From Balanoglossus misakiensis (taxonomy: Eukaryota; Animalia; Hemichordata): a stretch of 64,000 bases of DNA. Made by a program: the position numbers and the translations under genes. Below are positions 24,972 to 50,000 of the stretch, in pieces. The stretch is from positions 1,870,925 through 1,934,924 of the forward strand of contig CM082583.2 of NCBI GenBank assembly GCA_040954595.2. The letters are read 5' to 3'. Each line of letters begins with the position of its first letter. Positions within the stretch are counted from its first letter, which is position 1. A model generated the notes under the pieces. It was not told the origin of the DNA. It was given only the letters and a program-made list of their open reading frames with translations, and made no database searches.

Positions 24972-27900
24972 ATGGCGCTATATGAAATCGTCGAGCGGGT
25001 CTTGAGCGGCGCGTTTAAAAAGTATGGACGGTTCCTCTCGCGTTGTCCGTGGCTAGTCTTGTTCGTTGCATTTTTCTTGACCGGAGTGTTGGGTTTGGGG
25101 CTTTTGTTTACGGAGTCGGAAACCAACCTCGAGTACCTGTACACGCCGGAGAACAGCCGGGCCGTGCAAGACCGACGCCGGGTGGCGGCTTTGTTTCCCG
25201 ATGCAAGCGGCTCTGACTTCTACCCTCATCAATCAGCGTCTCTCGGTGTGTACGGAGATGTGATTTTTCTTGGTCGAAGAAGAGGGCAGAACGTTTTAAC
25301 CAGCGAAGTACTCAGTCAATCTCTGGTGGTTGACGAGTACGTAGCTAACATATCGCTCATAGTAGACAATACAGAATACAGTTATTACAACGTCTGTGCC
25401 AGGCGATCCGGTTCGTGCTACGTAAGCGGTATACATAGCCTACTCAACGGTACCGATGTGAGCACTTTCCTACAAAAGCAACTCACTTACCCCGTTGTTG
25501 AAATTGGTGCCGAGTCGGTATACCTACCAGCTATTTTGGGCGGCGTAACAGTCAGCGGAAAGTCAACTGTACAGTCTGCCGAAGCGTTCCGTGTGCGTTA
25601 CTATCTCCGAACTGATGGAGAATACAAAGACATCAGTCTGTTGTGGGAGAAGGAATTTCTGGCGAGGTTGTCTGAATGGAACGGCACGTCCATCCAGATC
25701 GCGTACTCCACCTCCGAGAGTTTGAGCAGCGAGCTGAATTCGGGACTGTCGGGCGACATCGTCCGGTTTTCCATCACGTTCGCTCTGATGATCACCTACG
25801 CAACGCTGGTGTGTGGCACAGGGAACTGCATCACCACCAGGAGTTGGCTGGCTTGCACGGGAGTCATCGCCGCTGCTTTTGCGATCCTGGCGTCCTACGG
25901 GTTCTGTTCCTACATTGGCGTGAAGAAGGTCAGCGTGGTCGATATCATGCCATTCCTTATCGTAGGTAGGTTTCCCGATATTATTGTAAAATGATTAGGC
26001 AAACCCTGCATTCTTTCTTGTAGTTTCGATATCAAACATTTGCATAATCCACCTTTAACACATACAGTTCACATGTGACTGAAATTTCCTCCTTTCACGT
26101 CATAAGACAACGTATCACGGCTTCATAGTATATTTGGTCAGAATTATTGGTAATATGTCACAAAACACAACGAGCATATTAATGTTAAAATCCTGCGAAG
26201 AAGAAATGAACGAGTGCGTGTTTAGTTCACAGAACAACCCAGCCATCAGAGAGGTCGCTAAGGTTCCCGGATGTTTGGGTCCGATCTTACACGCAGAATC
26301 AGAAAGGCTGGTTTTAGTGAAAAGGGAAAGTAATGATAACATGTTGTAATAACATTCACAATTCATAAATATTTGTAACAGAAATGAAAACAATACTTGT
26401 ATCGTAGTGTCAAAAGCTTATATAAATAGTTGTAGACGCAGCACCCTTTTTAGACTGCAATATACATCTATACCATCCGTATGAGTGTTTGGGTTTCAAC
26501 GTTCTGTACAATATATTATAACCATGGAATTGAAAAAGATTTCTCCATGCCTACTACGTACTTGCTCCTTGCGAGGAATATAGTTTTATCAGCGCCCTTC
26601 CTCCCCCCCTCTCCCCCTCCCCCTCCCTTCTTTGGTTGATTGCTTCCTTCCTTCCCTTGTTATTTTATGTATTTTTGCGGCGTGGAAAATTGAATCCTAC
26701 TTTCTTCTCACTCTTCCATTTTTCTCTCTCCATGCTAATGATTACAGGAATCGGAATTGATGACATGTTTCTGTTAATGTCTGGATGGCTTGAAACCAAA
26801 CCCTCGGACAAAGTTGCGGACAGAGTCAGCACTGCTTTGAGCATCTCTGCTGTCTCAATCACAATCACGTCGTTGACCGACCTTCTGGCGTTCACGATTG
26901 GAGCGACCAATGTTTTCCCGGCTGTCCGCAATTTCTGCATATACACTGGTAGGTGGCGTATTTGTTAAGGTAGCACGCGCCTCGGGGACAGATTTTCAGT
27001 AAAAAAATTATAGTCCTTCAAAGCGTTTAAGGACTGGTCAGTTTCTTCGGCTGGGGGCGGTGTATTCTATTTTGTGGATATCAAAAAGTGAATGAGCCCC
27101 CCACCTCATTGAACATGGGAAAAGTGAGTGATCCCCCATCACCCAATTCCAAAACAGAGTGCCCTCCCTATGTATTAACCCCCAGACCGAGGAAACTGAC
27201 AAATCCATTTTCATTGCTGTAATAACGTGTGTGAAGGTCTTCACCGTTTTGTTTTCACACATAAATTAATACACTATTCCCCCCTAGAATTAACACAGGT
27301 ATTGGCCACCATTTTGAATTTCTCAATGTCGCTTTCTCAAACGCAAGTTTGCATCGTGGCCCCTGCATGTACATGTACATGTATACTAACTGAGAGGTGC
27401 GTGCATGCGTGGATGAAATATTGTACCTTTAGTCCTAAGTCTGGAAAGTACTGGTATAGACTGGATATGATGACGTACATTTAGGCTAACCCAACAATTA
27501 ATGATTTTAGCAGCAAAACATGCAGAGCGCGGGCTTTCATCAGTTTTTTTCTTGTCTGCTATTTTCAGGCTTCGCAGTGATATGGTGTTATTTAATGCAG
27601 CTGACGGTCTTTGGGAGTTTCATGGTGTTCCACACGAGACGGGTGAAGGATGAGAAACACTGCTTCACGGGCGCAAAGATACCGGACGAGGAATCGTGCA
27701 AAGCACGCGGCAAAGTTTGGTACTGTAACTGGATTGTCTGGTGCCGGGGAATAGAATCAAAGAGTATAGAAAAAGACGAAGAAGACAGAAGCATTTTCGA
27801 GCGGTTTTCGGGGCCATTTGCATCATTCGTGAAACGTTGGCCTGTTAAAATAGCAGTTTTAGTTGTGTTTGCAGGATACTTGGGCGTTTCTATATGGGGT

Positions 27901-28992
27901 GCCAGTCAGTTACAGCAAGGTCTTTTGTTAAATAATCTTGTCCCACCAAGCTCCTATCTCCATTCCTACCTTATTCTCGACAATGACTATTTCGACACTA
28001 ATGGTCCTACTATTTCAGTCGTAATGGACGGCCCCCTAAGTTACTGGGATGAAGGCGTACAGGGAAAGATCAACAACTTACTCACGGAGATTCAGAGTGA
28101 CAATGACATAGTCCAAGACTCCAGCATATCCTGGCTCGACAGTTTCTCAAGTTTCCATAACAGATCGCCTCCCAGTGACTTGTCTACTTTCATTTACTCC
28201 CTTCAATTTGAATTCCTCCCGGCTTTTCCTGTCTTTGACAATGACGTGAAGATTTCTGATGATGGACAGGTGATAGCAGCGCGATTCTATGTCCGTTCCG
28301 TTGGACTGACCAGTTCAACCGACCAAGGCCAGATGATGCTACGAGTTCGGAAAATAACCGACAGCAGTGATTTGCCTGCATTCGCCTACACAGGCGCGTT
28401 CATTTTTTACGAGCAGTACGTTCAAGTACTACCGAGCACATTGCTAACTGTCGGCTGCGCTGTGGCGGCCATGTTTGTCGTCTGCATTTTCTTCATCCCC
28501 CACCCCCTCTGTGTTATTTACGTCACCATAACCATGGTGATGATTCTTGTCGGTCTGTTTGGTTTCATGCATTTCTGGGGTCTTTCTTTGAGCTCCATCA
28601 CTATGATACACATAGTCATTAGCATAGGTTTCAGCGTCGACTTTTGTGCGCATGTCAGTCATGCTTTCATGAAGGCTGATGGGAAAGATCGCAACGAGCG
28701 AGTCACGGTGGCCCTGTCTCGTGTTGCAGTACCCATCTTGAATGGTGGAATCTCCACCCTCCTCGGTGTAATCATGCTTGTAGACGCCAGTTCTTACGTA
28801 TTTCAGTCATTCTTCAGGATAATGGTTCTCACTATCCTCTTTGGGGTCGCGCATGCGCTTCTTTTCCTCCCTGTCTTGTTGTCGCTGATTGGTCCTTCCA
28901 AATCAGAGAAGAAAGAAATTTCATCTGGAAAAACAAAGGTACATCTCGAGCCAATTGGAAATGATAATTTAGCGATAGAGATTAAAGAGTGA
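24972..28992 (+). CDS. PTCHD3: Patched domain-containing protein 3-like (sterol-sensing domain, RND-family multipass transporter), about 872 aa
   Basis: Exons 24972-25965, 26748-26948 and 27569-28992, with two phase-1 GT-AG introns, 2619 nt in total (alternative ATG at 24951). Motifs: EYLYTPENSRA, LLWEKEFL, MPFLIVGIGIDDMF (TM4 GxxxDD), SITITSLTD..F.IG, FIFYEQY, ISIGFSVDFCAH, HALLFLPVLLSL. The symbol indicates family; orthology is untested. Confidence 0.93.
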
Positions 28993-30265
28993 CGTCACCT
29001 TGATGTAACAAAGCACGGCGCCCCAGAATTCTGTAAAATGCACACAGTCACTTAACCTATGAAAATTTAGCCACTGTTTCATGAAAAGTTGAAATCTGAC
29101 AGTGCGTTGTAAAGCCAAATCTCTCTGCCTTCAAATAACTAACAAATTAGTCAGGCTATCAATCAAAAGAAGAAAGTTTTAGTTGTGAAACTGTTTGCTA
29201 CAATATCGCATCACTCTGTGAAAACATGCAAATAAATGGTGCACTTTACAAAGACCCAAAAAGTATATTTGTTTCAAAGTGTGTTTTGATATTTGAAAAA
29301 GGCTGAAAGCAATTTGAATATACCGAAGCTGTACTTAAGCTGCACATTATTTTATACATGTATTTTGACATACATATTGTAAATACATTTATACGTGTTT
29401 AGCTGTTTTGTGTGTACAGAAAAACTGCGTTTGAATTGTCATTGTTTTTACCAATTTCAATAATACAATGTATATATTCCCATGGTTTATTTTTCAAATT
29501 AGATGATGATCGATAATAATACCTATGGTCTTACAAAATGCATTCTGACCCAAACCAATAGCTGAAAAGTGTATTTCAAAATAAAGTATTTGGCTGAAAA
29601 CAAAAGAAAGAAAATTATATTAATTGATGTAAATAAGACAATTTTAGTACTTGATTTTTTTTCACTTGCATTTGTATTTCATGTATTTCAAGTGTTTTTA
29701 AGATAAGTTTGATGTGTGGAGTGAGAATTTTTATTCTGATATTTAGTACGTTAATCATAATTATATGGAAAAATACAAGTTCATTATTTACACTTATTAC
29801 AATAGATTTATTAATCGCTGACAGTAGATTTAAGGGGGGAAAAGGTGTGTACAGTGTACTACTCAAACAAGTATCACCACAAACGCCAAACTAGCCTAGT
29901 CCAGTTTTAGTGTGAACGTCAATGTAATAATTAGTATTCGTATTCTTCGCTGTTTTACAATAAAATTGCCATCCAATATGAATTCGAGACTTGATCGCTT
30001 TTTCTAATACCTGAAATGTGTCCGATTGTATGTTGCATAGCCCTAAGCCTATGGACCGTGGTTCTATCTGATATTTATTAGCTCTCGTACTGAAGCATCA
30101 TGGAATGCAAGTCGTCAAAGTAATATTACTAACATGTCTGTGCAGGGCAATTATGGCAGCCCATAGTGAGAAAGCTGTAATAGAGCTAGCAGTCCCATCG
30201 CATAGCCCTACCCTGGCACTGTGCCCGTGTTCCATTTGCACAATCGTTGACATGTGTTAGCATTG

Positions 30266-30420
<155 letters not shown>

Positions 30421-31047
30421 TTTCCTCTGGTAATACAAGCAATACTGATTCAACATATGGTAATTCTTGGCGTTGCTTTATTCAACTATGTTAAACTCGC
30501 ATCAATCTACACTCAAGTGAATTTTTTCATTGACGCAAAACATATTTAGTTCGTTTGTGTCAAAACTTTTCACATAACGATGTACCATAGAACTGCATCG
30601 TGTTTCACACATATCAGAACTAAACATACGTCAACATAACCCGGTAGGCAATAAGGGATAAATGATGATTATGTAATGAAAATTTGTAACACTTTTTTTC
30701 ATGAAATATTAAAATACAAAATTGATCTAAAACCGTCCCAAGCACTCCCCGTAATAAAATATTCAGACATATGTCTCTCGGCTGTTTCAAGTGTATTAGG
30801 AAGACAATACCTTGTTTCAGTTTTCAAATGGCAAATTATTTCACTTTGGAGATCATTGTTGGTTATGTTGGTTGAATGTTGCTGAAATGAGAACATAATC
30901 TGTAAAATTACTAAACGGTTACTATGTCATCAGACAAGAACATTTTCAAATGGTGCTGTTTACCTCTTCAGTATAACACAATAAAAGAAGCCATGTATTT
31001 GATAAATCAATCAAGTCCATAGACTTCACTAAGGTTACATTGTATTA

Positions 31048-31329
31048 TAGCCTAGTACCTCGCCATATTTTGTCCGCTTTGCTTCCAATACTAACAAACA
31101 TGCGTGTAATTAAGGATGGGTAACATTTTAAATTCAAATTAGCCCTGCCTTCACTATAACCTTACACCCAATCACCATTGATCAGTTTATGTGAGTGACT
31201 TCTGAGGGACGCTAGTAACATCACAATTCCCAGCAAGGGGTATGGGGTTTTATTGGGCCAGTGGCATGAGTGATGCTAGGCGTTCGTTTTGGAAGCAAAG
31301 CGGACAAAATACGGCGAGGTACTAGGCTA
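31048..31329. mobile_element. MITE with TAG termini and about 45-bp TIRs
   Basis: tagcctagtacctcgccatattttgtccgctttgcttccaa / ttggaagcaaagcggacaaaatacggcgaggtactaggcta; flanks attgtatta / tttgtattg (7 of 9 match). Confidence 0.8.
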
Positions 31330-31453
31330 TTTGTATTGCTAATAAAACTTATATTTAAAATCTTTTCTTTCAAATGAAAAGTAGCAGGTTAGAAAAGAAT
31401 TGGTTAATCGATAAAGCTGATGTGCATAGTAATATAATATGTGACCTGATTAA

Positions 31454-32249
31454 GATGGGTCCCCCGGATCTTTTTGCCCGTTGCTATGGGCCTTTGTAGG
31501 ACATTACACCCCGATTTGGACTAAGCCGTTTTCAGAGTCTACCAAGGGGCTGGTAACTAGTTGAAAATCTGCACGATTGTGAGCGCGCGCCCCCTGACGC
31601 CATTGATATGCAAATTAGCTAGGTCAAATTTCAAAAGCCTAAGGCTTTTTATTCCGTGACCTCAAAAACGAACTTGATACGTATTCATTAGTTGCTTGAA
31701 CCAGGGAAGATCGTGACGGATTTTGTTTTCGAATATTATCGTTGTATCCTACGATTTCAGCATACCCGTACCACACCTGAAAAAATCATCGATTTTGGGT
31801 GTTTTTGGACGCACTCTTCCATCGGTATCGCTTCTTAGCACGACGAAAACCGAAAAAAACGATCCGTCACACTGTGCGGAAGTGCGTTCTCAACAAGCAG
31901 GTCAAATTTGGCTGGCCTACGTCGCCTGTGAAAAAAGCCTTAGGGATTTTCGTGAATGGTACAAAATCTCTGTGTACAAAACATTGGATTTTTAGCGTTC
32001 GATCCAGTTACTGTGGTTACAGGACGCGCACGCTATCACTGACCGCTGCTTTGCCGCATTAGCGTGGCGGCCTATGGCCGGGCGGTAGCTGCCGTAACCA
32101 TACTCGGACAGGGGGTGTGCACACAATCGTGCGTATTTTTAACTAGTTTCAAGCCCCTTGTCGGACGTTCATAACGGTTGCGATCAAAATTGAGTGTAGT
32201 GTCCTATAAAGGCCTATAGCAACGGGCAAAAAGATCCGGGGGACCCATC
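31454..32249 (+). mobile_element. Non-autonomous TTAA-targeting DNA transposon (Kolobok-like), copy 2
   Basis: Reverse-complement copy of 14663-15442; TTAA at 31450-31453 and 32250-32253. Confidence 0.88.
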
Positions 32250-33598
32250 TTAATTAATCTGTAATGAGAAAAACAGCAACTAGCTTCAATTCCGTAATAA
32301 GTCTAAATCTGAAAAGTTCTTAGGAAGCACTTGTTTAAATATTTCAATTGATATTTTGTTCAAGAAAATCATCTTACTTAACATTTTATCTTGATTAAAT
32401 GAACCCTACGTCATACACGATGACGTTTCAAAGTGTGAAACCATAACTAAAACATGAAAAATTATGTGTCACAAACAAAGTATTCAAAATTAATACAGTG
32501 TACAACTATACTATATTGAAAACTTAGTAAAGAAAGAAATTCTGTTTGTCAATACTATAGATAACTTCTACATTAAATGTACATGTACAAAGATCAGTTG
32601 AAATACGCTTTTCCTGTCAATCTTACGTGTTCTAGTAATGACACATATATATGCGTCATGGTACAGAAATGTGAATGATTAAATACATCATTTTACATAT
32701 TTTTAATCAAACTATTACGGACAAATCTAAATTGCTAGAGTTGAAAATAGAAAGAAGACTTTGAATATACAGTGTTCTCCCCAGAGCAATTTACGCATAT
32801 TGGCCTCTACTCTTTAATGTTGATAAGACAATGGAACGTAATTGACATAACAATTATTTATATAGTTATGCAAATTAGCCGCTACTCTATCAGAAATGTT
32901 TGGAGAACACTGATGTATAACATATTTCCTCTAGATCTTTTGCTCAAACAATTAACTTCGCTGGGCATGGAACCGGTACAAATATGTACATGTGAGTTTC
33001 CCAATGTCTGTAAACATAAGCCTTGGTATTCTATACAAAATTTTGGTACAGTATTGAGGAAGTTTAACAGTGGCCACGTTATCATAAACCATGTGTATAC
33101 TGATAACCATGAGCGAAACTAATCCTGCAATATAGGATCAACACAGATGCTAATCTAGTCCAGTCTATAAAGTGTAAAGTACTATAGTCACAACACAGTA
33201 TACAGGGGAGCATACAGAATCTCAAATAATTAGAGTTGCTGTGCCATGCCAAATAGAACTTGGAAAAAGAATATATATATGCAAATTTAATTGCTGAATA
33301 CAAAGTGTGTAAGTACAATTGCCATGAAAACAAAGTGAAGGCTGGTTGGCTTTATAAAAAGTTTTCTTTTCTGAAGACTTTGATGTTGATTATGGGCAGG
33401 CACAAGTGAGGCAAATATCGCATGGTCAAAACTAGGTCATAATTTGTCAAAAACTATAGTTACTAAAACACAGCAACGTGTTAGAGTCTGTATATGGTGC
33501 AACAAAATCACTTTCCTGATAATATATACGAATATACTCAACACAAATATTTAGCATATGTTCCTTTCTTTCTGTCGGGAAGATGAGTCGAAAACATC

Positions 33599-34264
33599 TC
33601 ATTGCAACCTCTTTTTCAGTTCCATTGCCCAGGTCAGCAACTTGTCATGGTCGACACTCTCAAAGGTCAATGTTCTCTGCTTTGTCTTGATCTCGAAAAC
33701 GCAACAACCTGAAATATAATACAAACAAACAACATCCAATATTTCACGTCTTGACGGAAGACTGCTTTAAATTGAATTTTTTGTCAAGAACATTAAATGT
33801 AAATCAATTTAAACCTGTCACTATCATAGTTCAGTCATAGTCCGTAAAACTCAATTGTGGGAAGATGCGAACTAGCTTGTCCCTATAGTTTGTGAGATAT
33901 AACTGTCGGAACTACAATTTGACTGTATAAACAATAGCCCACAGCCAAATAAACCAAACTTTACACTACACTTAACCAAGCTACACTGCAGCTTAGAATT
34001 TCGCAAATTAGTGCCTGCATGTACACTACCGCTTTGTTGTAAATTGTTGTTTGCTGATGTATGTCACCATACTTTTTGCAGCAGTTGTTTACTGACCTGT
34101 GAAGTTGTACATGTTGATGACAGCCACATTTTGGAGAGCTATTCTTCTGTGCCTGCCATTTGATTGCCAAGTCAAATACTTCTTGCCACTAATCGGACAT
34201 CTTTGGATACACAGTTGTGTTTTATACTTGTATCCCTTGGACGTTCTCTTTGTCAGCCTCACGC
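33599..34264 (-). CDS. Two terminal PKS exons encoding a PH-like domain
   Basis: Exon 34264-34097 (GVRLTKRTSKGYKYKTQLCI..KYLTWQS..RRIALQNVAVI) and exon 33708-33599 (CVFEIKTKQRTLTFESVDHDKLLTWAMELKKRLQ*); pyrimidine-rich acceptors; both introns are phase 1, matching the donor at 34685. Confidence 0.72.
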
Positions 34265-37200
34265 CTACGAAAAGAGAATCAAAGTGGGAAGAATGGTTAT
34301 TGGTGTTCTTAGTCTTTGGTGTGATGATGTGATATCGACTGCATTGGGCGAATTTAAGTACCCTGTTTATTTGAACCATTTTCTATCAGTAACTCCGTAC
34401 CCAAACCCTAACCACCAAACAATTGATCAATCGAGCGATCGATCGACCGATCAATCTATCGTATATCTATCAAAAGAGAAAAAGATGCAACTTAAGCCAG
34501 CTATCAACCAACCAAGAAATACAATTATTAGTCAGTCAGTCAGTCATGCAGTATTCGGTCGGTCAGTAAGTTAGTCATCCAGTCACCTAGTCAATAAGTC
34601 AGACAATCATGCATAATTAACAAAATTTATGTCTGATGACCTGACATATATCAATGTTCTAACTTTAGCGAAATGGTCAAATTACCTTCTTCCAATTCTG
34701 GCCAAGAATGCTGTTTTTCCCCCACCAATTTGGACATATTGAGGTGTTCCTGCTCCCCGATGAGTAAATCTATGTTTCCATCATGAGCCAGGTCACCGTT
34801 CATAACAACGTGGTCGGTATATTCTTTACAGTTAGGTTTCCCAACATCCTGCCTGCCATTAAGGAGAGCAGAATCCAAACTTCCTTGTACTGTGCCCTTC
34901 TGCGCATGTGTCCTATATTTTGTGGTGACGTCATTGAGACTTCGATAACTCTCACTTACACACGTCGCCATGAGGTCTCTGTAATCACTGAAAAACTGTT
35001 GACCCTCTTGGTGGCTGATGCATGAAGTGTTGAACCCACACCGGAGCGAAAGCGTGCCTCGGTTTGCATTTCTAACAACTTCAATTCTCGTAATTTTACT
35101 TAAACCGACGAGACCTCCTTCGACATGCTCGACACCATCAACCACGTCTGCATCTCGTACCTCTTGAAATGCTGTGTGTTCCTCCCATGTAATAACGTGC
35201 TGATTGAGGGATTTGGGTTGGTCATCACCAGTCACCTTGACACACTCACAGATTTTGGACGTTGGGTAAAGACTGTGATGGACTCCAGATTTCACCCGGT
35301 CTCCTATTTCTTTAAGGAAATCAATAATTGGCATTTCCTTGTTCCCGAAGGTAACTCGCAAGAGGACATTGTTGATAAAGAAACCAACGACTTCAGAGCT
35401 GACGGGGACATGCATACGCATATTGACTGGGTAAGTGACCAATATGTCATTGGACTGAGAGTAGATGTTTAGAAGCATGGCGTATACAGCAATCATCAAT
35501 TGGAATGGGGTAATTCCTATTTTCTGTGCAAACCGTTTCAGGTTTGCCGCGGCTGTTGAATTGATCTCCAAGACAACATGGCCTACATCTACAGACACAG
35601 GATCTTGCATCATCAATGAGAACCTCCCAGGGGTGACATCAACAGGAGTGGCAAATATGTCCTCCCAGAATTGTCTCAGATACGTCGCCTGGGAATGAAG
35701 GAGCTGGCTTCGCTGTGCTAAATACTCGCCGAACTCGAATGATCTCCTCTGCTCGAATGAGTTATGCAACATCACTGCAATCAGGGCACGCCTGAAATCT
35801 CTCATAAGCGTTGTCAGGGAGAAGAAATCACAGGATATGTTGTGAACAACAATTCCAACGTGGGTTATCTGCTTCTCAATTTCTGCGAGAAAGACTCTGA
35901 TGGGGAAGTCATTCTGCAAGTCGAAAGGTAGCTTGCTTGCATGTCGTATTGAAGATACAGCCTCATCGTCATTAGATAGGCCAACAAGATGTCGAACGTC
36001 AGGATTAAAGTCTGAATGGATGTGGTACATAACATCAAAGACGTCATTATTGGATTTGCCTTGTTGGTATTTGGCTCTAAGCATAGCATGCTGCTGCATC
36101 AGTAGCTGTAGTACATCATGCCATTCCTTCTCAGTTGTGTCGAAGCCATGGATCCGAAATATGGCATACATGTTATTTGTGATGTCTGGGGGTGTTGCCT
36201 GTGTTTTATGGAATCTAAGAGCTTGATCCTCAACAACACTGCCAGTAACAATATCTGATGCACTATGAAACAACTTAGATGCATTTTCTCCATTCATGAC
36301 ACTGCCAATGTTATCCTGGATGTACAGGGAGATTTGAGATAACGTTGCTGTTTCTGCCAGCAGGAGCGCTATTGGAATGTTGACACCACATTTCTTCTTA
36401 AGATGAGTCTGCATTGTCATTGCTTGCATGGAATCTAATCCCAATGCAACAAGGGAGACATCTTCAAGGATTTCTTCTGTTTCCATTGCGAGCACATTGG
36501 CAACATCTGCCTTAACAAGGTCGTGCAGAAATGATGGTTGCTGACTCAAACTGTTGAAAGGTATGTTCCCGCGGTTTGTACTTTCTACCACGGCATCACT
36601 CTTTCTCCTTGTGTCGATGAAATTCTCAAAGCGCCTGCTGATGTGTGCAAGTTCAGATCTGTGCAGATCTTGTGATATACGACTCCAATTAAACTCCCCA
36701 AATAATACCTGAGAAGGATTGTACTTCAAGGTATATTCGAAGCACTTAATGATGTCAGCCACTGGTAATGGTAAGTATCCCATTGTAGTCAGCATTTTCT
36801 TGACATCTTTAACACTGTCTATGATGCCAATGTTAAGAGCGCTCCAGTTGATGGTTTGACCAGGGAGACCATTGCTTCTTCTGTACTGTGCAAGCTGGTC
36901 TAGAAATGCATTTCCAGCACCATAATTTGCCTGCCCTCTATTGCCAAAAACTGCAACAGTAGACGAATGCATCACAAAGTAATCCAGAGGATCATCCCTG
37001 GTTAGCTGATGGAGATTCCATGCACCAAGAATCTTTGGACGAGTTGCAGTGATGAATTCCTCATCTGACATATTTATCAACAGACGGTCTGCCAACACTA
37101 CTGCTCCATGGAATACTCCTTTGATGGGAATGGCACCCAACTGTTTTCTAAGGTTCTGCAAAACCTTTTCCAAGGCCTGGACATCACTAACATCTGCCTG

Positions 37201-40200
37201 AAGAAACCATAATCGTGTGCCTCCCATTTCTATCTCACTAAGTTCAGCTGACTTGCTTGTATCTGGGTGACTTCTGGACACTATTGCAAGGTGCCCTGCG
37301 CCTCGTTCAGCCATGTATTTACATGTCTCTAACCCCAGGCCCTTTGTACCCCCAACAACCAGGTAGCAGGCATTCTTGTGAAAGAGTCGATCTACATCTG
37401 CATGAACCAAGCCTCTAGAACGCATATTAAGTATAGGTATTGATTCATTGTCAATGGGTGGGACCACAGTACTGCACTCAGACTGATCGAAGTTGAATTC
37501 CTTTATGTTGAGTAGTTCTACATCACTTGTCTGTGACATTTTCTTCGACCACTTTACAACTTTTGGAATGATTTTATCCAGATGCTTTGCCTGGAGTACT
37601 TGCTTGGTGCTTACTGTAATAAACTTCATGTCTGGTCTTAACGTACCAAGGTAATCCGTTTGTGAGTCGTCTCCTCTTTCCACATTTACTACTACTGAAC
37701 CAATTCGAAGGTTGCTCAGAATCCATTGGTTCGATTTGTGTGACAGTTTTCCAAGATGGAGAAACACCACCTGTTGAAGCCCATTGGTTTTAGGTTCATC
37801 AGCATGACTGAAATGGTTACTAGATATTTCTTTGAAACCACACCTCCTGGCATATGACGAGAACAGACTAGTGAGACAGTTGTATTTCTTGGTGCTTTGT
37901 ATGATCAGCTGTCTTACAGTAGGGTATTGATGCAAGTTAACCACTAGCACTTCCCACAAGAGAACCATCAGGGACAGGCATGGTATTCCCCTCATCCACT
38001 CTGGGAGTACACTTGACTTCACAATCAGTGATTCTGGCACATTAGCTATTGATGTAAGCTTCATCGGATAGCAAATGTGTACTTTTGTACCTTGTGCAAA
38101 ACTACTATCAGAAGACAATATTTCGCCGAGGCAGTCAATCCCAATGACTGCGTGTCTGTCATTGCTGTCTTCTGACCATGGCAATGATCCTTTCAGTGAC
38201 AGCCCAGTCATAGTCACTTGAAATAACTCAGGGTCATGTAACCTGGCCTTTTGTATACTAGCACACACAAACTTCCCAGATGGGGTAGTGATGGCATCTT
38301 CCACTGCATAGTGTAGCTCAAGATTTAGAACACTCTCAGGAAGTGTTGACATCACTTCTGTTGGAAGATCTGGCTGGACTCCTATTACACGCTTCTTGAA
38401 ATAGGCATCATTTGGCTTGACCCTCTTCAGCTTATTGGCATAGACTGTAGAACCATGTATGACATACTCTGAATGCTGGTTTACTTGGCTTTCAAAAGAT
38501 ATCTGGGCCATTGTTGCAACTTCTACCTCAGAACCCTCACTCAGATCAATTAGTGTTGTCTTGTCATAGGTACCTTCACGGAGCAAACATCGAACCATTC
38601 CCCAAACAGGAGCACCGATCAACTGAATATGATTTGACTTTGGCATCGTAGATCTGAGTGCTGACCTTTCTGTTGTTTCAAGCTTGCCTTGGACACCACG
38701 GGTTACTACAGTCAATGGACACATTGCACCATTTGTGGCAAGAAACTTCACAATATGTTTAAGTGCCATGCATGTGGAATTAATGTAGTCGCACAGGAAT
38801 CCCTCGATGTTTTCCTCACCATCACGGATGCTCCAGAAGTAAAATATGTGTTGAAAAGTGTTGATGTCTCTCTGTACGTTTTGTAGTATTAGACCAATAT
38901 CTGTGTGTATATCAGAATACTCTACTATGTACGAATCACTGCTTATGAACTTCTCCAAAGAAGACACTATGCCCATGCTATCGGCAAACACAATGCAATT
39001 TGGAGGCAGGCCCTTCTCAGTACCATCTGTTTTGCTTGTTGTAACTGTGAGATTCGGGATACCATGTCTGAGCCACTCCATTTCATAAGCAAGTTGACCA
39101 ATTACTCTGCCATCGTTTTCATCCAGTACCTTTGCCATGATGTCTGTGCATTCTGCAACAACTTCACCTGACTCGTTCATGATGACTGCATTAAAACTAG
39201 CCAAGTAGTCTGACCTGCGCATCAGCCTGATGTAAACAAGGACACAAGGGTCAGGTTTCCCAAACACTAACACATTCCCAATCGAAATGGGGAAGCATGG
39301 TTTAGAATTCTTGTTGCCTTGGTGGTTTGGATCATATGTAGGCACAGCCGTAGCTTGGAGGACACCATCGAATATGACAGGATGAATAACTGTGTTACGC
39401 AGTTGGTCTAAAAGTTCTTCTGGTAATGACAGCATCACAACAGCTTCTTCTCCATTCCTCCAGCACTGTGAAATAGGTCGCATGGTTGGCCCATATGAAA
39501 AGCCAAAGCTTTCCAGAAAGTCATAAACTTGCTCCACATCTATCTCATCACCACAACGTGACCTGATTTCAGAAATATTGAAGCGGCTGGTTGGAGTTTG
39601 TTTCTTCGAGCTCACCCCGATGACACCATCAGCAGTTTTTATGTCACCGCAACAAACTTTGAAGGAATGGCTTTTTAAACCGTCACTTTGGTCCTCAAAT
39701 TGAACGTAGACATCCTTTTCTTCCTCTGTCAGCATCAGTGGTTTCAGAAACTCAATGGACAATCCGCAGCATTTTTGCCGTGTGTTTGGCAACAACGACA
39801 AGCAAGCTTCAAGGGCCAATTCACCATAGACTACACCAGGAACCACCACAGAACCACCAACAATGTGATCATACACAAATGGGAAGTCTCCTCTATTGAT
39901 TGTACATTTGTATGCCACATCATCAGCGGAGACCCTGGTCACAAATTGGCAATCAGTCCCACTGTCTTTCTTTATTCCCATTCTATACAGCTTCGAGGCT
40001 TCTGGTTCGTACCAGTGTTTGGCTTTGTTGAACTGATAAACCGGAAGATCTGCTGGAATTCGTTGACTGTGTTTGTGATATGAACCCCAGTCTATCTGGA
40101 TGCCTGTCTGGTAAAGCTGACAAAGGGTATCCAAGAGAGTAACGTGGCCCCTTTTCTCTTTCATAGATGGAAGAACTCTACCACTACATTTAGACACAAT

Positions 40201-43200
40201 TTCACTAATATTCCTCTGTAATGCAGGTTTGGGACCAACTTCTATTGTGATGTTTTCTGCATCTTCCAGGATGGCTGCCTCCATTGCCTTCGAGAATTGA
40301 ACTGCTTCTCGTACATTTCGTTTCCAATAGTGAGCATTTGTAAAGTCACCATCCACAGCAAGCCTACCTGTGACAGTGGAGTAAATCTCTGCCAGCTCTC
40401 CATTATCTGTAGTTTCCAGAGGATTTATCGAGTTTAGGAAGTCATTGCATATTGGCTGCACGTGGTGTGAGTGAAATGCTGTGGATACGTTGAGTCGACG
40501 GAAAAATATGTCCATACCCTCCTGTTGGTTTTCGATTGCAATCAGATTTTCGATTACAGTGATGGCGTCTTCATCTCCGGATAGTGTGAAAGACGTAGGT
40601 GAGTTAGTGGCAGCAATTTCCACCCGTCTGTCCACAGCTTGGCAATATTCATCAACTTTCTCGGCAGATGTGTTGCCCACAGCAGCCATTCCTCCTCCTG
40701 ACACTTTCTGCAGAAACTGACTCCTGTAGAATATTATCTTGACTGCGGTTTGGAGGTCTAGCTTCCCTGCTGCATATGCTGCCGCAACCTCACCAACTGA
40801 GTGACCGATTATCGCATCTGGTTTGATACCCCATGATACCCACAGGTGGTGAAGAGCCACTTCGATAGCAAATATCGCTACCTGTTTCATAGAGCCAGAG
40901 GCCAACTCTCCATGTCCGACAATATCAACAAGAGAATGGTCGGTGTATTTTGACAGTAGGCCAGCAATTTCTTCTATCGCCTCTCTAAAGGTGGATTCTT
41001 CAGCGAACAAATCACTTCCCATTCCTTTCCAGTCTGTACCCATTCCAGGAAAGACAAAAATAATTCTCTTTCGTCTGACAGTATTCGATGGATTTTGGTG
41101 ATATATCGCCTCTTCCGCCTTTTCCAAAATCTGGCATAAGCCGTCACTGTTAGTGGCGTGAATTGCAAATCGGTGGTTGTTGTAGTGTGAGCGCCGAGTA
41201 GTTGATGTATACGCCAAGTCGTCAATGAAATCGCTTGACTTGTTCTTTAATACATTTTTCAGGTACTGCATGGTCAACTTCATTGACCGCTTCGACTTTG
41301 CTGACAGGGTGATGATTGGGTGAACCACTGGTTTACTTTTTCGTAGGTCAACGTATTCTCTGACGATAGCATGTGAATTCGAACCACCAAAACCAAACGA
41401 ATTCACACAGGCTAATCGACCACGACCATCCTCTGTCTCCCATGCCGTTACCCTCGTTGGGATTTGTAACTGGAGGTCTTCCAAGTCTATTCGGCTGTTT
41501 GGCTTGTCGAAATGAATGGTCGGCGCGATCGTTCGGTTCTTGATCATCAGAAGCACTTTGATCAACCCAGCGACACCAGCTGCAGACTCCAGGTGAGCAA
41601 TGTTGCTTTTCACCGATCCCATGTAGCAGGGTGAAGCCCCGGGCTTTCGAGCTTTGCCTATGAAGTTGCCCAGGGACGATGCCTCAATGGGGTCCCCTAC
41701 AGGTGTGCCAGTACCATGTGCCTCGATGTAAGTCACGTCACAAGGGTCAACGTTATATTTAGTGTAAACTTTGTGTAGAAGCTGTTCCTGTTGTTTGGAA
41801 GAAGGGGCCGTTATGGGTGTAGCAAAGTGACCATCCTGGTTGCAGCCAGTTCCAACGATTCCCCAAATTCTGTCACCATCGCTTATGGCCTAATTTTCAA
41901 ATTAAAGTAAGTGTTAGTTTCAAAGACACAACCAATTTCTTAACCATCTTCTTACGTTTCTAGAGGAATGTGGTTGGAAATTCCAACTCATGATAGGTGG
42001 GTACGACGATATACCTATTACAGACTGCAAGTCACTAAATAGGTGCAAACAATAGGCAATTCATTAGTCTGTGTGAGTTTGCATACGAGACCAAACCTTC
42101 TCTTGCTGGTGGGGAAATATCACAAAATGCCTGTTATTTTTTTACCTTCTGCAGAGACTTCAAAATAACAACGCCACAGCCTTCTCCTCTTGTGTAACCA
42201 TCTGCCTTGTCAGAAAACGGCTGACACAGACCTGTCGATGATAACATGTTTGCTCTGCACAAGGTAACAAATACTTTTGGATCCAGAATAATGTTGACGC
42301 CACCACACACAGCTATTTCACAGTCTCCTAAAATGCAAATAATAATGTGTTGGTGACGTTGATGTTGGTTCAGAACGGCCTTAGTGTAACTATATACCCT
42401 GGGGAAAGAGAACAAACGACTGTGGAAAAGATCTGAGATTGTGCTGGATAATACCTTTGTTTTCACGCATTATGTCCATACATTCGACGGTTCGACGTTA
42501 AACAAACGCACCTGCACGTATACCTTGACATCCAAGATGGATGCCTATCAGGGAGGACGAACAGGCTGTATCCACACAAATGGATGGCCCCGTCAAGTTC
42601 AGGGCAAACGACAGGCGGTTTGCTACGATAGACGTTGCAGCGCCAGTCACTGTGTAATTGTCCCGCTCGCTCACGTCTGAACCAATCAAATTCCCGTAGT
42701 CATTGGCCATCACACCTAAGCAATATTAAGGGAAATTTCTGGTCTGCTTGTATGTGCTATCGCATAAAAAATATTGTAGTTATAGTTATACTCGAGCAAG
42801 ACCTTCCATCAGTAGCACTGGCAAACCTGTACATAATTATGGGTATCATTATAAAAATCCTCAAATCAGCATTACCTCAGAAGTATGTGAGGACTGCATG
42901 TACTATGCTTTTTGAGGAAATCACCACCGACACTATTGTTAACTGAAGTAAAGTCTACCGAGCCAAATAACGAGAATATATTGGCTGCCTTCGGAAGTAA
43001 TTTCTAAATTTCACGTATACTGCGATTTGCCATTTCAGGACGTATCTTTGACGAAATTAGTCCAAGTCTTACCGATGTAGCAACCGACTTCCATCCCTGA
43101 TAGTTTGTCCATGGGAAACCCGCCGTTTTCCAAAGCCCGATATGTACATTCCAGCAACACATATTGTTGTGGATCCATTCGGGCTGCCTCATCGTCGTTG

Positions 43201-43569
43201 ATTTGAAAGAATCGATTGTCCCATTCAGTCAGCCTAGTGATATAATGGAAGGACCATCAAAGCCCCAGTAACTCTTACTTTTCGTCAGATTTTAGTATTT
43301 TTTTCTGACTCGTCCATTAATTAAATTATCATTTATCATCCAAAAACACAATACCTCTCGATAAATGCCGCATGCCTGGCATAAGATTTGCCTTTGGCAC
43401 TTCTGTCGCTGCTGTAGAAAGCGTCGACGTTCCATCTGTCCTTGGGTATTTCAGTCACATGGTTTTCCCCGTTCACCAAGACTCGCCAGAACTCATCTAT
43501 GTCGTTCGCACCAGGGAACTTGCAGGCCAACCCCACGACTGCAATGGCGTCTTCCGAGTCTGGATCCAT
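33599..43569 (-). CDS. pks: Animal type I (iterative) polyketide synthase, KS-AT-DH-pseudoER-KR-ACP-condensation-like-PH-like, about 2747 aa
   Basis: Phase-consistent GT-AG exons: 43569-43355, 43233-43073, 42715-42512, 42327-42146, 41889-34686, 34264-34097, 33708-33599 (8244 nt). KS: DTACSSS, EAHGTGT, KSNIAHLE. AT: GHSVG, AFHS. DH: HIVGGSVVVP, DGVLQ. KR: GGTKGLG, GQANYGAGN. ACP: GLDSM. C-like: HAMLR, PFDLQNDFPIR, HNISCD, VGFFINNVLLR. Confidence 0.93.
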
Positions 43570-43826: not shown

Positions 43827-44073
43827 GTAAATGTGAACTGTTTGATTGTTATCTGAGAGGGCTTCAGTTGTAGAAAACTACATGTTGTCTTTCTTTCAAA
43901 CATTTCCCGGATGTGCCCCCGGTTCCGCCGGACACAAAGTTCAACAAGCGAATACAGAACTTTTAAACTTGTTTAGTCAAACAGGCATTTGTTGTATTAC
44001 ACATTTTCCACGTGACCATCTTCTTTGTCCCGCGAGAATGCTGATCAAAGCATCGGTTGCTTATACTCCGAAG

Positions 44074-47000
44074 GCCATATTGGATTTTCTGAAAAAATTC
44101 AAATCTCAGATCTCAGAAACTACAAGTCAGATCGACTTCAAATTTGGTATACAGGTAGACTACCTTCTGCCCATCATTTTTGTAATTGGAAATTTTGCTA
44201 CAATGTTGCAGTTTTTTTGCTACAATTTTTTTTCTGAAATCTGGCTTAAATTTCAAAAATCTTCTTCTCCAGAACCGGTGATAACCGAGTCACGCGGTTT
44301 GGGGTATGTGGTCACCTAACTGATGTCTATCAAGTTTGCGAAGATCATTGTGATTGGTCGAAGATTATGGCGGCCATATTGGATTTTAGAAAAACCATAG
44401 TTAAACTCCAAAAATCTTCTTCTCCAGAACGGGCGATGACTGAGTCGCAAGATTCGGGGAGTATGGTCACTACACTGATGTCTATCAAGTTTGCAAAGAG
44501 CATTGTGATTGGTCGAAGATTATGGCGGCCATATTGGATTTTGTAAAAAGCAGTGAAAAATTGAAATTCCTTTTTCTAGTCTAAAAATTGATAGCATACA
44601 AATTCTTTTTATGGATATCAATCGTCATGTGACTAAAATATGTTACAATTTTTTGGCGATTTTTCACATGACCTTTGACCTACTTATCATGCGTTATTAT
44701 TTCTGCATATCTAATTCCAGGCTAACCTATAGGGCTAGACGTTTGGTTTTTGATGAATGTGGATTAGTGTGTGATCAAAATATTTTGCTACTTTTCATGA
44801 CCCCTTTGACCTCTGCTGACCTCATTAATTATGTGCATAGCTAATTACAGGCGAACCAATAGAGCTAGAGGTTTGGTTTTTGTTGGACACAGACCAGTAT
44901 GGGATCAAAATTTTTTGCCCAAATGTTGCGTGACCTCTGGTGACCTTTGACCTACTTTCGCATATCTCAGCATCCAGAGCAGATACAGCCATGGCATTTG
45001 GTAGGATGGGACCAAAATGTAAAGCCACATTTTTGAGTCACCTGTGACACCTGCTGACCTCATTAAATATGCACATACCTAATTACAGGCGAACCTATAG
45101 AGTTAGAGTTTTGTTTTTTGTTGGACATGGACCAGTATGGGTAAAAAAAAAATTGCCCAAATGTTGGGTGACCTCAGGTGACTTTTGACCTACTTCACCC
45201 TATTTCAGCAGCAAAAATACACACCTCCTTGTTATGTCATGAGATAATACATCGGATAGAAAATTCTGTTTCTTCTCATTCACACTGTGCATATATAATT
45301 CAAGATCAGCGCTTGGGCCCGACAATGCTGCTTGCAGCTTTAATTAGGGCCCAAGCGCAAGCAAGCGCTTGGGCCCTATTGGTTTCGTTGGGGTTTTTAG
45401 GGCCCAAGCGCAAGCCAGCGCTTGGGCCCTATTGGTTTCGTTGGGGTTTTTCTTTCTTCTTTCTTTATTCTTGTGTCAATTCTTTGTCGCTCTAGATCTC
45501 AGACACCACTGCAGGTACACTTCTGAAACTTGCTACAGTGGTCAAGGTCAATGAGTAGTTGTGCATTGAACCCATGAATTTTTAATTAGTCACATGACCT
45601 GGCGGCCATCTTGGATTTTCTGAAAAAATGCAAATCTCAGATCTCAGAAACTACAAGTCAGATCGACTTCAAATTTGGCGTGCAGGTAGACTACCTTCTG
45701 TCAAACATTTTTGTAATTGGAAATTATGCTGTCAATGTTGCAGTCTTTTTGCTACAATTTTTTTTCTGAAATCTGGCTTAAATTTCAAAAATCTTCTTCT
45801 CCAGAACCGGTGATAACCGAGACATGGGGTTTGGGGTATGTGGTCACCTAACTGATGTCTATCAAGTTTGCGAAGATCATTGTGATTAGTCGAAGATTAT
45901 GGCGGCCATATTGGATTTTCGAAAAACCCTAGTAAAATTTCAAAAATCTTCTTCTCGAGAACCGGCGATAACCGAGTCACAAGATTTTGTGTGTGTGGTC
46001 ATTCAACAGATGTCTATCAAGTTTGCGAAGAGGAATGTGATTGGTCGAAGATTATGGCGGCCATATTGGATTTTGTGAAAAACAATTAAAAAGTAAAAAT
46101 TCCCTTTCTAGCCTAAAAATTGATAGCACAGAAATTCTTTTTATGGATATGAATCATCATATAACAAGAATAAGCTATAAATATTTTGGTAATTTTGGCA
46201 ATGACCTTTGACCTACTTTTGACGCATCAATTTTCTGCATATCTAATTCCAGGCTAACCAATAGGGCTATAAGTTTGGTTTTTGATGTATGTGGATTTGT
46301 ATGTGATCAAAAAATTTTGGTACTTTTCATGACCCCTTTGACCTCTGCTGACCTCATTAAATATGCGCATACCTAATTACAGATGAACCAATAGACCTAG
46401 AGGTTTTGTTTTTGTTGGACAGGACAAGTATAGGGTCAAAATTTTTTACCCAAATTTTGGGTGACCTCTGGTGACCTTTGACCTAATTTCGCAAATCTCA
46501 GCATCCACAGCAGATACAGCCTTGGCGTTTGGAGGTATGGGGCCATAATGAAAAGCCAAAGTTTTGGGTCACCTGTGACACCTGCTTAACTCATTATTTA
46601 TGTGCATACCTAATTCCGGGCTAACCAAAAGGGTTAGAGGTCTGGTTTTTGTTGGACATGGACCACTATGGGTCAAAATTTTCTGCCCAAACTGTGGGTG
46701 ACCTCTGACCTACTTAACACTATATCAGCACTAAACATAGATATAATCTTGATATTTCATGGGATAAAACACAGCATTATGTTTCTACTCATTAATTATG
46801 TGCATATCTAATAATCAGATCAGATAATAGAGCTTGGGCCCGGACAATGCTGCTTGCAGCTTTAATTCTGTCTTTCTTTCTTCTTTCTTTACGGGCCCAA
46901 GCCAAGCCAGGCTTGGGCCCGTATTGGTTTCGTTGGGGTTTTTTAGGGCCCAAGCCAAGCCAGGCTTGGGCCCTATTGGTTTCGTTGGTATTTTTCAGTC

Positions 47001-50000
47001 TTTCTTTCTTTCTTTCTTTATTCTTATGTCAATTCTTTGTCGCTCTAGATCTCAGACACCACTGCAGGTACAGTTTTCAAACTTGCTACAGTGGTCAAGG
47101 TCAATGAGTAGTCGTGCATTGAACCCATGAATTTTTAATTAGTCACGTGACCTGGCGGCCATATTGGATTTTCTGAAAAAATGCAAATCTCAGATCTCAG
47201 AAACTACAAGTCAGATCGACTTCAAATTTGGCGTGCAGGTAGACTACCTTCTGTCAATCATTTTTGTAATTGGAAATTATGCTGACAAAGTTGCAGTTTT
47301 TTTGCTACAATTTTTTTTCTGAAATCTGGCTTAAATTTCAAAAATCTTCTTCTCCAGAACCGGTGATAACCGAGACACGGGGTTTAGGGTATGTGGTCAC
47401 CTAACTGATGTCTATCAAGTTTGCGAAGATCATTGTGATTGGTCGAAGATTACGGCGGCCATATTGGATTTTCGAAAAACCCTAGTAAAATTTCAAAAAT
47501 CTTCTTCTCAAGAATCGGCGATAACCGAGTCACAAGATTTGGTGTGTGTGGTCATTAAACAGATGTCTAACAAGTTTGCGAAGGGGAATGTGATTGGTCG
47601 AAGATTATGGTGGCCATATTGGATTTTGTGAAAAACGATTAAAAAGAAAAAATTCCCTTTCTAGCCTAAAAATTGATAGCACAGAAATTCTTTTTATGGA
47701 TATGAATCATCATATGCCAAGAATAAGCTATAAATATTTTGGTAATTTTGGCAATGACCTTTGACCTACTTTTGACGCATCATTTTTCTGCATATCTAAT
47801 TCCAGGCTAACCAATAGGGTTATAAGTTTGGTTTTTGATGTATGTGGATTTGTATGTGATCAAAAAATGTTGCTACTTTTCATGACCCCTTTGACCTCTG
47901 CTGACCTCATTAAATATGCACATACCTAATTACAGGTGAACCAATAGACCTAGAGGTTTTGTTTTTGTTATACATGGACCAGTATGGGGTGAAACTATTT
48001 TGCCCAAATGTTGGGTGACCTCGGGTGACCTTTGACCTACTTTTGCATATCTTGACATCCACAGCAGATACAGCCTTGGCGTTTGGAGGTATGGGGCCAT
48101 AATGAAAAGCCAAAGTTTTGGGTCACCTGTGACACCTGCTTACTCATTATTTATGTGTATACCTAATTCTGGGCTAACCAAAAGGGCTAGATATCTGGTT
48201 TTTGTTGGACATGGACTACTATGGGTCACAATTTTCTGCCCAAATTGTGGGTGACCTCTGGGTGACCTTTGACCTACTTAACACTTTATCAACACCAAGC
48301 ATAGATATAACCTTGATATTTTATGGGGTAAAACACAGCATTATGTTTCTACTCTTTAATTATGTGCATATCTAATAATCAGATCAGATAATAGAGCTTG
48401 GGCCCGGACAATGCTGCTTGCAGCTTTAATCTTTCTTTATTCTTGGTTCACTTCTTTGTCGCTCTAGATCTCAGACACCACTGCAGGTACAGTTCTCAAA
48501 CTTGCTACAGTGGTCAAGGTCAATGAGTAGTAGTGCATTGAACCCATGAATTTTTAATTAGTCACATGACCTGGCGGCCATCTTGGATTTTCTGAAAAAA
48601 TGCAAATCTCAGATCTCAGAAACTACAAGTCAGATCGACTTCAAATTTGGCGTGCAGGTAGACTACCTTCTGGCAATCATTTTTGTAATTGGAAATTATG
48701 CTGTCAATGTTGCAGTTTTTTTGCTACAATTTTTTTTCTGAAATCTGGCTTAAATTTCAAAAATCTTCTTCTCCAGAACCGGTGATAACCGAGACACGGG
48801 GTTTGGTGTATGTGGTCACCTAACTGATGTCTATCAAGTTTGCGAAGATCATTGTGATTGGTCGTAGATTATGGCGGCCATATTGGATTTTCGAAAAACC
48901 ATAGTAAAACTCAAAAAATCTTCTTCTCCAGAACGGGCGATAACTGAGTCGCAAGATTCGGGGAGTTTGGTCACTTCACTGATGTCTATCAAGTTTGCAA
49001 AGAGCATTGTGATTGGTCGAAGATTATGGCGGCCATATTGGATTTTGTTAAAAGCAGTGAAAAATTGAAATTCCTTTTCCTAGTCTAAAAATTGATAGCA
49101 TACAAACTCTTTTTATGGATATCAATCGTCATGTGACTAAATTATGTTACAATTTTTTGGCGATTTTTCACATGACCTTTGACCTACTTTTCACACGTTA
49201 TTATTTCTGCATATCTATTTCCAGGCTAACCTATAGGGCTAGACGTTTGGTTTTTGATGCATGTGGATTAGTGTGTGATCAAAATATTTTGCTACTTTTC
49301 ATGACCCCTTTGACCTCTGCTGACCTCATTAATTATGCACATAGCTAATTACAGGCGAACCAATAGAGCTAGAGGTTTGGTTTTTGTTGGACATGGACCA
49401 CTATGGGAACAAAATTTTTTGCCCAAATGTTGGGTGACCTCTGGTGACCTTTGACCTACTTTCGCATATCTCAGCATCCAGAGCAGATAGAGCCTTGGCA
49501 TTTGGCAGGATGGGGCCAAAATGTACAGCCACATTTTTGGGTCACCTGTGACACCTGCTGACCTCATTAAATATGCACATACCTAATTACAGGCGAACCT
49601 ATAGAGTTAGAGTTTTGTTTTTTGTTGGACATGGACCAGTATGGGTAAAAAAAAAATTGCCCAAATGTTGGGTGACCTCAGGTGACTTTTGACCTAGCAA
49701 GCGCTTGGGCCCTATTGGTTTCGTTGGGGTTTTTAGGGCCCAAGCGCAAGCCAGCGCTTGGGCCCTATTGGTTTCGTTGGGGTTTTTCTTTCTTTACGGG
49801 CCCAAGCCAAGCCAGGCTTGGGCCCGTATTGGTTTCGTTGGGGTTTTTCTTTCTTTCTTTCTTTCTTTCTTTATTCTTGGTTCACTTCTTTCGCGCTCTT
49901 GATCTCAGACACCGCTGCAGGTACAGTTCTCAAACTTGCTACAGTGGTCAAGGTCAATGAGTAGATGTGCAGTGACTTGTGAATACTTAATTAGTCACGT

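Follow-up and report, generated by a model that had tools for sequence, protein, structure and literature searches.

A polyketide synthase gene tail to tail with a PTCHD3-like transporter gene in the hemichordate Balanoglossus misakiensis, an old pairing in animals

A convergent gene pair

A stretch of 64,000 nucleotides of the genome of the hemichordate Balanoglossus misakiensis (contig CM082583.2, positions 1,870,925 to 1,934,924 of the forward strand), here called the window, contains two intact spliced genes in convergent (tail-to-tail) orientation, one coding for a PTCHD3-like transporter on the + strand and the other for a polyketide synthase (PKS) on the - strand. The linkage of PKS and PTCHD3 genes is real and old, being seen in molluscs, echinoderms, hemichordates and reptiles, and it is likely to represent an old animal unit for making and moving a product. 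The evidence for linkage across genomes comes mostly from published papers and protein models rather than from genome DNA.

The stop codons of the two genes, at 28990-28992 (PTCHD3-like) and 33601-33599 (PKS), are 4,606 bp apart, and the introns of both models have GT-AG borders throughout, which bears out the preliminary description of this locus as two intact tail-to-tail genes with stops 4.6 kb apart and repeats between them. As far as tested, the gap (28993..33598, no strand) holds only repeats, namely an (AC)n(CT)n microsatellite (30268-30420), a short inverted repeat (31047-31330) and an element of ~810 bp with terminal inverted repeats that resembles a miniature inverted-repeat transposable element (31443-32253). 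A tblastn search of the gap with 26 PKS/PTCHD relatives gave no match, and its open reading frames of at least 70 aa appeared non-coding on inspection by eye. A promoter common to both genes was rejected on the basis of their tail-to-tail orientation. The remaining neighbours in the window are unrelated to the pair. By our own estimate, which assumes 25,000 genes and 20 PTCHD3-like paralogues, chance adjacency would amount to ~0.002 per PKS.

Linkage of PKS and PTCHD3 in other animals

The preliminary description had placed the PKS locus of birds and fish near PTCHD3 and RAB18, and this linkage proved to be real (PMC9894158, PMC10990284, PMC8616904). PTCHD3 adjoins almost all homologues of a clam PKS, with clams and vertebrates both covered, an observation used in the available text of that paper only to argue for an animal origin (PMC9894158); no text on PTCHD3 was found in its supplement. 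In wall lizards, five full-length Pks and five full-length Ptchd3 genes lie between Rab18 and Acbd5 (PMC10990284). The accession numbers given in the same source, whose order is a hint of gene order only, interleave in Varanus (Ptchd ...949 and 952-954; Pks ...951, 955 and 956), abut in Gekko (Pks ...365, Ptchd ...366) and Zootoca (Pks ...643-645, Ptchd ...647), and are not adjacent in Lacerta, Python and Sphaerodactylus (PMC10990284). PKS1 and PTCHD3 of Acanthaster are found within one 56-kb window of that genome (PMC12330192). For birds, the available part of the source describes PKS-RAB18 synteny and does not mention PTCHD3 (PMC8616904). The two Glandiceps PTCHD3-like proteins nearest to that of the window have the same scaffold length as the Glandiceps PKS (15,961,026).

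When the clusters of 30 proteins were surveyed, a single member besides the fusion proteins described below was found to join both genes. This RefSeq model of Mytilus californianus, XP_052069056.1, contains ketosynthase (KS), acyltransferase (AT) and ketoreductase (KR) domains followed by a PTCHD3 half on the same strand. Its PTCHD3 half is 93% identical to a free-standing PTCHD3 of 911 aa in the same cluster and both of its halves are truncated; a true fusion was therefore rejected, and the model is read as a mis-merge of neighbouring genes. A fragment of a condensation (C) domain that had been suspected in it was not significant (E 0.013).

Patched-PKS fusion proteins

One of the 75 matches to the window transporter, P0454, is a protein of 1,901 aa in which a full Patched domain is followed by KS, AT and dehydratase (DH) domains. 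Its cluster comprises six ENA proteins, 94-98% alike, with Patched followed by KS-AT(-DH) and a junction that is co-linear in all six. In a careful KS tree of 25 rows, whose background consisted of 17 bacterial or unnamed rows without an animal fatty acid synthase outgroup, the window KS falls with fish, mussel and hemichordate PKSs in a clade of seven bilaterian rows (97/94), and the KS of the P0454-type proteins is sister to this clade (100/99). The antiquity claimed for the linkage is upheld by its recurrence, as neighbouring genes in distant phyla and as Patched-KS-AT fusion proteins.

According to one sentence of a preprint, a patched domain is present in most cnidarian PKSs (bioRxiv 10.64898/2026.04.08.717340), and an unnamed N-terminal 'other' domain is listed for three of three Acropora PKSs (PMC4604110). 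The cnidarian fusions have the same two components as the window pair and a KS that is sister to the bilaterian clade; unlike the window pair, they form one polypeptide, with a reported thioesterase end (bioRxiv 10.64898/2026.04.08.717340). The fusion may be ancestral or may have arisen independently. When metagenomes were scanned with the Patched part of P0454, 95 pattern matches came up, none of which was confirmed.

Expression and the need for export

The Gene Ontology term GO:0018996 is presumably a term of nematode ptr genes. In one bulk study of purple and gold mussel mantle, pks15 and a patched3-like gene are both upregulated (PMC12652611). The mussel PKSs are Hcu_1142.t12 and Hcu_1142.t13, and Hcu_1142.t14, a gene unnamed in the available text, is upregulated in both comparisons and carries GO:0018996 (PMC12652611). 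The same term is attached to Hcu_1142.t34 and Hcu_1582.t186, t188 and t190, which are also upregulated (PMC12652611) and are possibly further Patched-related copies. Together, the fusions, the merged Mytilus model and the mussel co-upregulation point to a common pathway for the two proteins.

In medaka, the PKS has an apical location and makes a lipophilic product that restores otoliths non-cell-autonomously (PMC4604110), and an export step is therefore needed. No explanation of the route by which animal PKS products reach ear fluid, shell or skin was found in the literature covered.

Domain organization of the PKS

The PKS model comprises seven exons on the - strand, from 43569 to 33599, and codes for 2,747 aa with a single terminal stop. 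Exons 1-4 (43569-43355, 43233-43073, 42715-42512 and 42327-42146) encode the N-terminal part of the KS, including the catalytic Cys in DTACSS. The 7.2-kb exon 5 (41889-34686) encodes the remainder of the KS, followed by AT (~41061-40108), DH (~39930-39118), a region modelled as a structural KR half and a degenerate enoyl reductase (ER) fold (39114-37372), KR (~37371-36835), acyl carrier protein (ACP; ~36519-36319) and the C domain (~36174-34924). The domain order is thus KS-AT-DH-(pseudo-ER)-KR-ACP-C plus a tail, with Pfam matches for KS, AT, DH, KR, ACP and Condensation. The catalytic motifs, read from an alignment with three hemichordate and one fish PKS and judged by the usual definitions for KS, AT, DH, KR and ACP, are intact (DTACSS, HGTGT, AHLES, GHSVG, the DH His with DGVLQ, the KR Lys/Ser/Tyr, and LGLDS), so that one chain carries the complete catalytic set: KS Cys/His/His, AT Ser, DH His/Asp, KR Lys/Ser/Tyr and ACP Ser.

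Between DH and KR lie 581 aa for which neither Pfam nor a PDB sequence search gave a match, ER/ADH included, and the glycine-rich NADPH motif that defines enoyl reductases was not seen in the PKS sequence; an active ER was rejected on these grounds. A low-confidence model of this region (pLDDT 52) resembles the KR-ER regions of MAS-like and modular PKSs (E 1e-10, with poor TM-scores), and the interval is accordingly read, as modelled, as a structural KR half with a degenerate ER. PKSs with KR and DH and without ER generally make polyene or hydroxy-acyl chains.

Two homologue searches with the PKS were dominated by bacterial proteins. The closest relatives of the window PKS are hemichordate, the nearest KS domains being those of Ptychodera flava (75-78%). 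Its domains, motifs and KS grouping are those of an animal iterative type I PKS, and it is predicted to make a polyketide or lipid.

The condensation domain

The condensation domain announced in the preliminary description was recovered with Pfam Condensation (PF00668, E 7e-31), with the TycC C domain (E 1.6e-12) and with an Atlas score of 0.99. Its 21 PDB matches are closest to C domains of nonribosomal peptide synthetases (NRPSs); none of them is a PapA, and no PapA Pfam model matched at E<=0.1. The active-site motif HNISCD (35827..35844, - strand) has Asn in place of the second, catalytic His of HHxxxDG. This position is His in 771 of the 780 aligned motifs among the fetched proteins and Asn in three. 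The motif reads HNISCDF in the window and in Ptychodera, NHTACDF in Glandiceps and HHIACDL in Saccoglossus, so that the catalytic His is replaced by Asn in the first two and kept in the others. A PapA identity was rejected on the basis of the NRPS-type matches, the lack of any PapA match and the lost His, and the PapA-like offloading step once proposed for this PKS loses its support with it. Without this His, the C domain probably does not act as a standard acyltransferase.

Among the best 150 cluster representatives (50% level) matching the C domain, Glandiceps P0182 is 41% identical and all others are at 20-27%. In the Saccoglossus PKS the C domain is followed by an AMP-binding domain, and the C domain of the window PKS is therefore probably derived from a PKS-NRPS hybrid that lost its adenylation (A) domain. 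PKS-C hybrids have been tabulated earlier for an acorn worm and amphioxus (PMC4604110) and for molluscs (PMC10764717). The model of the Saccoglossus protein P0232 (XP_006815698.1) has the C domain, a PH-like tail and an AMP-binding domain of divergent sequence; the part of the KS that holds the catalytic Cys is missing from it, probably because an exon was overlooked.

The PH-like tail

The open reading frame of exon 5 itself runs on to a stop at 34651, and a GT donor at 34685 followed by two further exons adds a tail of 93 aa. Exons 6 (34264-34097, first half of the tail) and 7 (33708-33599, second half and stop), both on the - strand, are predicted from splice signals and homology, and were accepted because the tail is conserved at the C-termini of Glandiceps P0182 (E 7e-15, 38%) and Saccoglossus P0232 (E 2e-7). 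The model of the Ptychodera protein P0004 (XP_070553984.1) stops directly past the C domain; its tail exons may have been missed, since the reading frame of window exon 5 likewise meets a stop shortly after the splice donor.

Pfam gave no match in either tail exon, and the window tail sequence found only weak PDB matches, to a ribosomal protein at E 0.09 and to five chains of PH type at E 0.3-0.96. A model of the Glandiceps tail was computed from four aligned rows, window exons 6-7 included; it has seven strands and, at the C-terminus, a helix (pLDDT 84). The matches to this model are of the PH/PTB/FERM type throughout, the top one being the SHARPIN PH domain (Z 12.1, rmsd 2.3, 90/97 residues aligned); Foldseek E-values were no better than 2e-3. 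The PH tail anticipated in the preliminary description thus finds support in this relative, and the PKS tail, as modelled on it, would belong to the PH superfamily fold. The window tail is basic, with 19 K/R and 6 D/E.

The PTCHD3-like transporter

The transporter model consists of three exons on the + strand and codes for 872 aa with 12 hydrophobic segments and a single terminal stop. Exon 1 (24972..25965), for which an in-frame alternative ATG exists at 24951, encodes transmembrane segment (TM) 1, the first luminal domain and the start of the sterol-sensing domain (SSD). Exon 2 (26748..26948; Patched SSD E 1e-19) encodes the acidic TM4 motif GIGIDD, and exon 3 (27569..28992) encodes TM6-TM12 with the TM10 motif GFSVD and the stop. 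The protein matches the Pfam Patched and sterol-sensing domains, and its 12 TMs, SSD, two luminal domains and GIGIDD/GFSVD motifs in TM4/TM10 are those of eukaryotic SSD proteins of the RND superfamily.

In the PDB, Patched-1 and NPC1 match best (E 1e-33 to 1e-37), bacterial RND pumps following at E 1e-6 to 6e-4, and the NCBIfam models rank in the order NPC1, Patched, HAE3. The MMPL profile PF03176 reached 17.7 bits on exon 3, below its cut-off of 20.5, and the NPC1 and Patched models scored far higher. Membership in the MmpL family was therefore rejected, and the transporter, earlier likened to MmpL, is by its sequence an SSD protein of the NPC1/Patched branch.

The window protein is 57% identical to the Glandiceps PTCHD3-like protein P0393. 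In a quick PTCHD tree it groups with three Glandiceps proteins (support 100), and these belong to a larger clade (support 99) of invertebrate proteins that carry the name PTCHD3-like. No vertebrate PTCHD3 was among the 75 matches of the homologue search, and the label "PTCHD3-like" follows the invertebrate proteins so named, in a tree without vertebrate PTCHD3 rows. Human PTCHD3 and C. elegans PTR-4 resemble the window transporter in their 12 TMs, sterol-sensing domain and acidic TM4/TM10 motifs. PTCHD/PTR proteins have been described as RND-related pumps of hydrophobic cargo, which may move in either direction depending on the family member, and the function of PTCHD3 has been called elusive (bioRxiv 10.1101/2021.03.30.437696).

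Repeats and other genes of the window

A second copy of the ~810-bp element of the gap lies at 14659-15453, with 93% identity to 31443-32253 and terminal inverted repeats of ~144 bp. A tandem array of 15.7 kb (44073-59742) begins 500 bp upstream of the PKS start codon. Its 11 units are 1.1-1.7 kb long, agree to 91-96% at the anchor and contain sub-repeats of 155 bp and 237 bp, and the array may have grown inside a mobile element. Its end is adjoined by a 229-aa open reading frame on the - strand (59703-60389) with DUF3504 (E 8e-23), which we take to be a Crypton-type transposon domain.

On the transporter side, the nearest coding neighbour, ~18 kb away, is formed by exons of one or more other genes on the - strand (1485-6272), with a Neuralized domain (E 1e-8) and an ARM-like region (E 2e-4). 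A 181-aa open reading frame on the + strand (13380-13922) resembles, on visual inspection, the terminal part of a LINE reverse transcriptase and had no Pfam match.

Discussion

We consider it fairly probable that the synthase builds an unsaturated lipid at the membrane, where the PH-like tail or the fusion would hold it, and that the PTCHD protein moves the product across. The product would be a polyene or hydroxy-acyl chain, made from malonyl-CoA in iterative rounds that skip enoyl reduction. The basic PH-like tail would keep the synthase at the membrane, a role taken by the covalent tether in the Patched-PKS fusions. Release of the chain may depend on another enzyme, or the C domain may bind the chain or a partner, and the PTCHD protein would carry the product outside or into the secretory lumen. 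A wider scenario is offered tentatively, as a possibility short of probable: an ancestral Patched-PKS make-and-export module would predate the cnidarian-bilaterian split and would have stayed fused in cnidarians and linked in bilaterians, with a PH tail in some lineages; PTCHD3 would export animal polyketide lipids, including the otolith-mineralisation factor, and would be dispensable in humans since the synthase was lost in placental mammals. People who are null for PTCHD3 are healthy (PMC3072306), and the available part of PMC4604110 lists no PKS for any of five placental mammals.

Several observations weigh against the make-and-move model. The genes are arranged tail to tail, so that co-regulation at the locus is not explained by a common promoter. 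Four of the six Glandiceps PTCHD3-like proteins are on scaffolds other than that of the PKS, and the accession gaps on the common scaffold do not establish adjacency. The P0454-type models, seen as proteins and not as DNA, differ in their ends and gaps, and two of them are without some motifs. Their Patched domain forms a long branch outside the bilaterian PTCHD3-like clade; in topology tests, its nesting among the bilaterian PTCHD3-like rows was rejected (p 0.0003) and a sister position to them was not (p 0.125), and its orthology to the window transporter is therefore unproven. A metagenome scan with a 34-row PTCHD alignment kept 80 of 185 loci, none of the 80 with a KS, a result that says little because all loci were of at most 12.2 kb.

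The two proteins might also serve the same pathway with the PTCHD protein at another step, supplying or sensing a lipid (a sterol, a starter acyl group or an acceptor) or anchoring the synthase at the endoplasmic reticulum, which we regard as somewhat unlikely. The sterol-sensing domain, the NPC1 and Patched profiles nearest to the transporter and the variable cargo direction in the family (bioRxiv 10.1101/2021.03.30.437696) agree with such a role, any common step is compatible with fusion and linkage, and tagged human PTCHD3 was located at the endoplasmic reticulum in COS-7 cells (PMC3072306), a location that counts against export as well. The medaka product is secreted and its enzyme apical, which speaks for export instead. 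The medaka PKS also makes its active product in a fungus without an animal partner (PMC4604110); a partner is thus not needed for synthesis, which argues against supply or anchoring, and the same result is a further point against the export reading. Unlikely, too, is a purely regulatory or historical linkage, by common enhancers or a common tissue or through the splitting of an ancestral fusion, with no common metabolite now. PTCHD3 is kept and expressed in placental mammals that have no PKS (PMC4604110, PMC3072306), which is again unfavourable to export, several hemichordate paralogues lie on other scaffolds, and vertebrate synteny blocks keep many unrelated genes, such as RAB18 and YME1L1 (PMC9894158, PMC8616904). 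On the other hand, the pair persists across phyla while the flanking genes change (PMC9894158), Pks and Ptchd3 are both expanded in the same lizard interval (PMC10990284), and the arrangement varies, being tail to tail in the window, on the same strand in the Mytilus model and fused in P0454. Chance adjacency of two multigene families, with fusions that are artefacts of gene prediction, is very improbable. The Mytilus model is clearly a mis-merge and the P0454-type fusions are known as protein models, whereas the recurrence of the pairing largely refutes chance, the co-linear junction of the fusions has an independent report (bioRxiv 10.64898/2026.04.08.717340), and adjacency would be required even for mis-merges.

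Mycobacteria have lipid clusters of PKS, PapA and MmpL genes, and export has been shown for MmpL. The window shares with them the logic of a lipid megasynthase gene beside a gene for an RND-superfamily transporter; the mycobacterial clusters have a free PapA and MmpL, whereas the window has a fused NRPS-type C domain and an NPC1/Patched-type transporter. The suggestion of an animal equivalent of these clusters stands for the old linkage of PKS and transporter, and does not extend to the PapA-like step or the MmpL type. Medaka OlPKS, budgerigar PKS, sea-urchin pks2 and clam MpES are like the window PKS in their KS-AT-DH-KR-ACP core without active ER, and the animal PKS clade is linked to PTCHD3, as in the window (PMC9894158). 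The window PKS differs from the OlPKS-type clade by its C-terminal C domain (HN for HH) and PH-like tail; the fish PKSs listed in PMC4604110 end at the ACP. In Saccoglossus LOC100373061, the Branchiostoma ACP-C-AMP proteins and the mollusc PKS-C proteins the C domain follows the ACP, as in the window PKS (PMC4604110, PMC10764717), which has no A domain, unlike the PKS-C-A hybrids. The PH-like tail is common to the window, Saccoglossus and Glandiceps and does not appear in the published PKS-C domain tables as available (PMC4604110, PMC10764717).

The adjacency, the cnidarian fusion and the PKS-C hybrids are each already in print, in the texts available without the reading of a common pathway. 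What is added here is the fusion together with the position of its KS in the tree, the Mytilus model that merges the two genes, the C domain without its catalytic His, and structural evidence for the PH-like tail. Nothing further on the pair came from the available text of PMC10531068, PMC10951248 and PMC11413580. No proposal of PTCHD3 as a polyketide transporter was found in the full-text literature searched, which mostly leaves out subscription papers, so that an earlier proposal is possible.

The partnership of the two genes is real and old, and export is its candidate function, unproven and testable. The His-less C domain and the PH-like tail on a PKS are a further predicted architecture of interest. 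The pair suggests what the orphan PTCHD3 may carry and which protein may serve as exporter for the PKS. If the proposal is true, it would represent a rare and very old biosynthetic gene pair in animals and would open animal genomes to mining for secreted polyketides.

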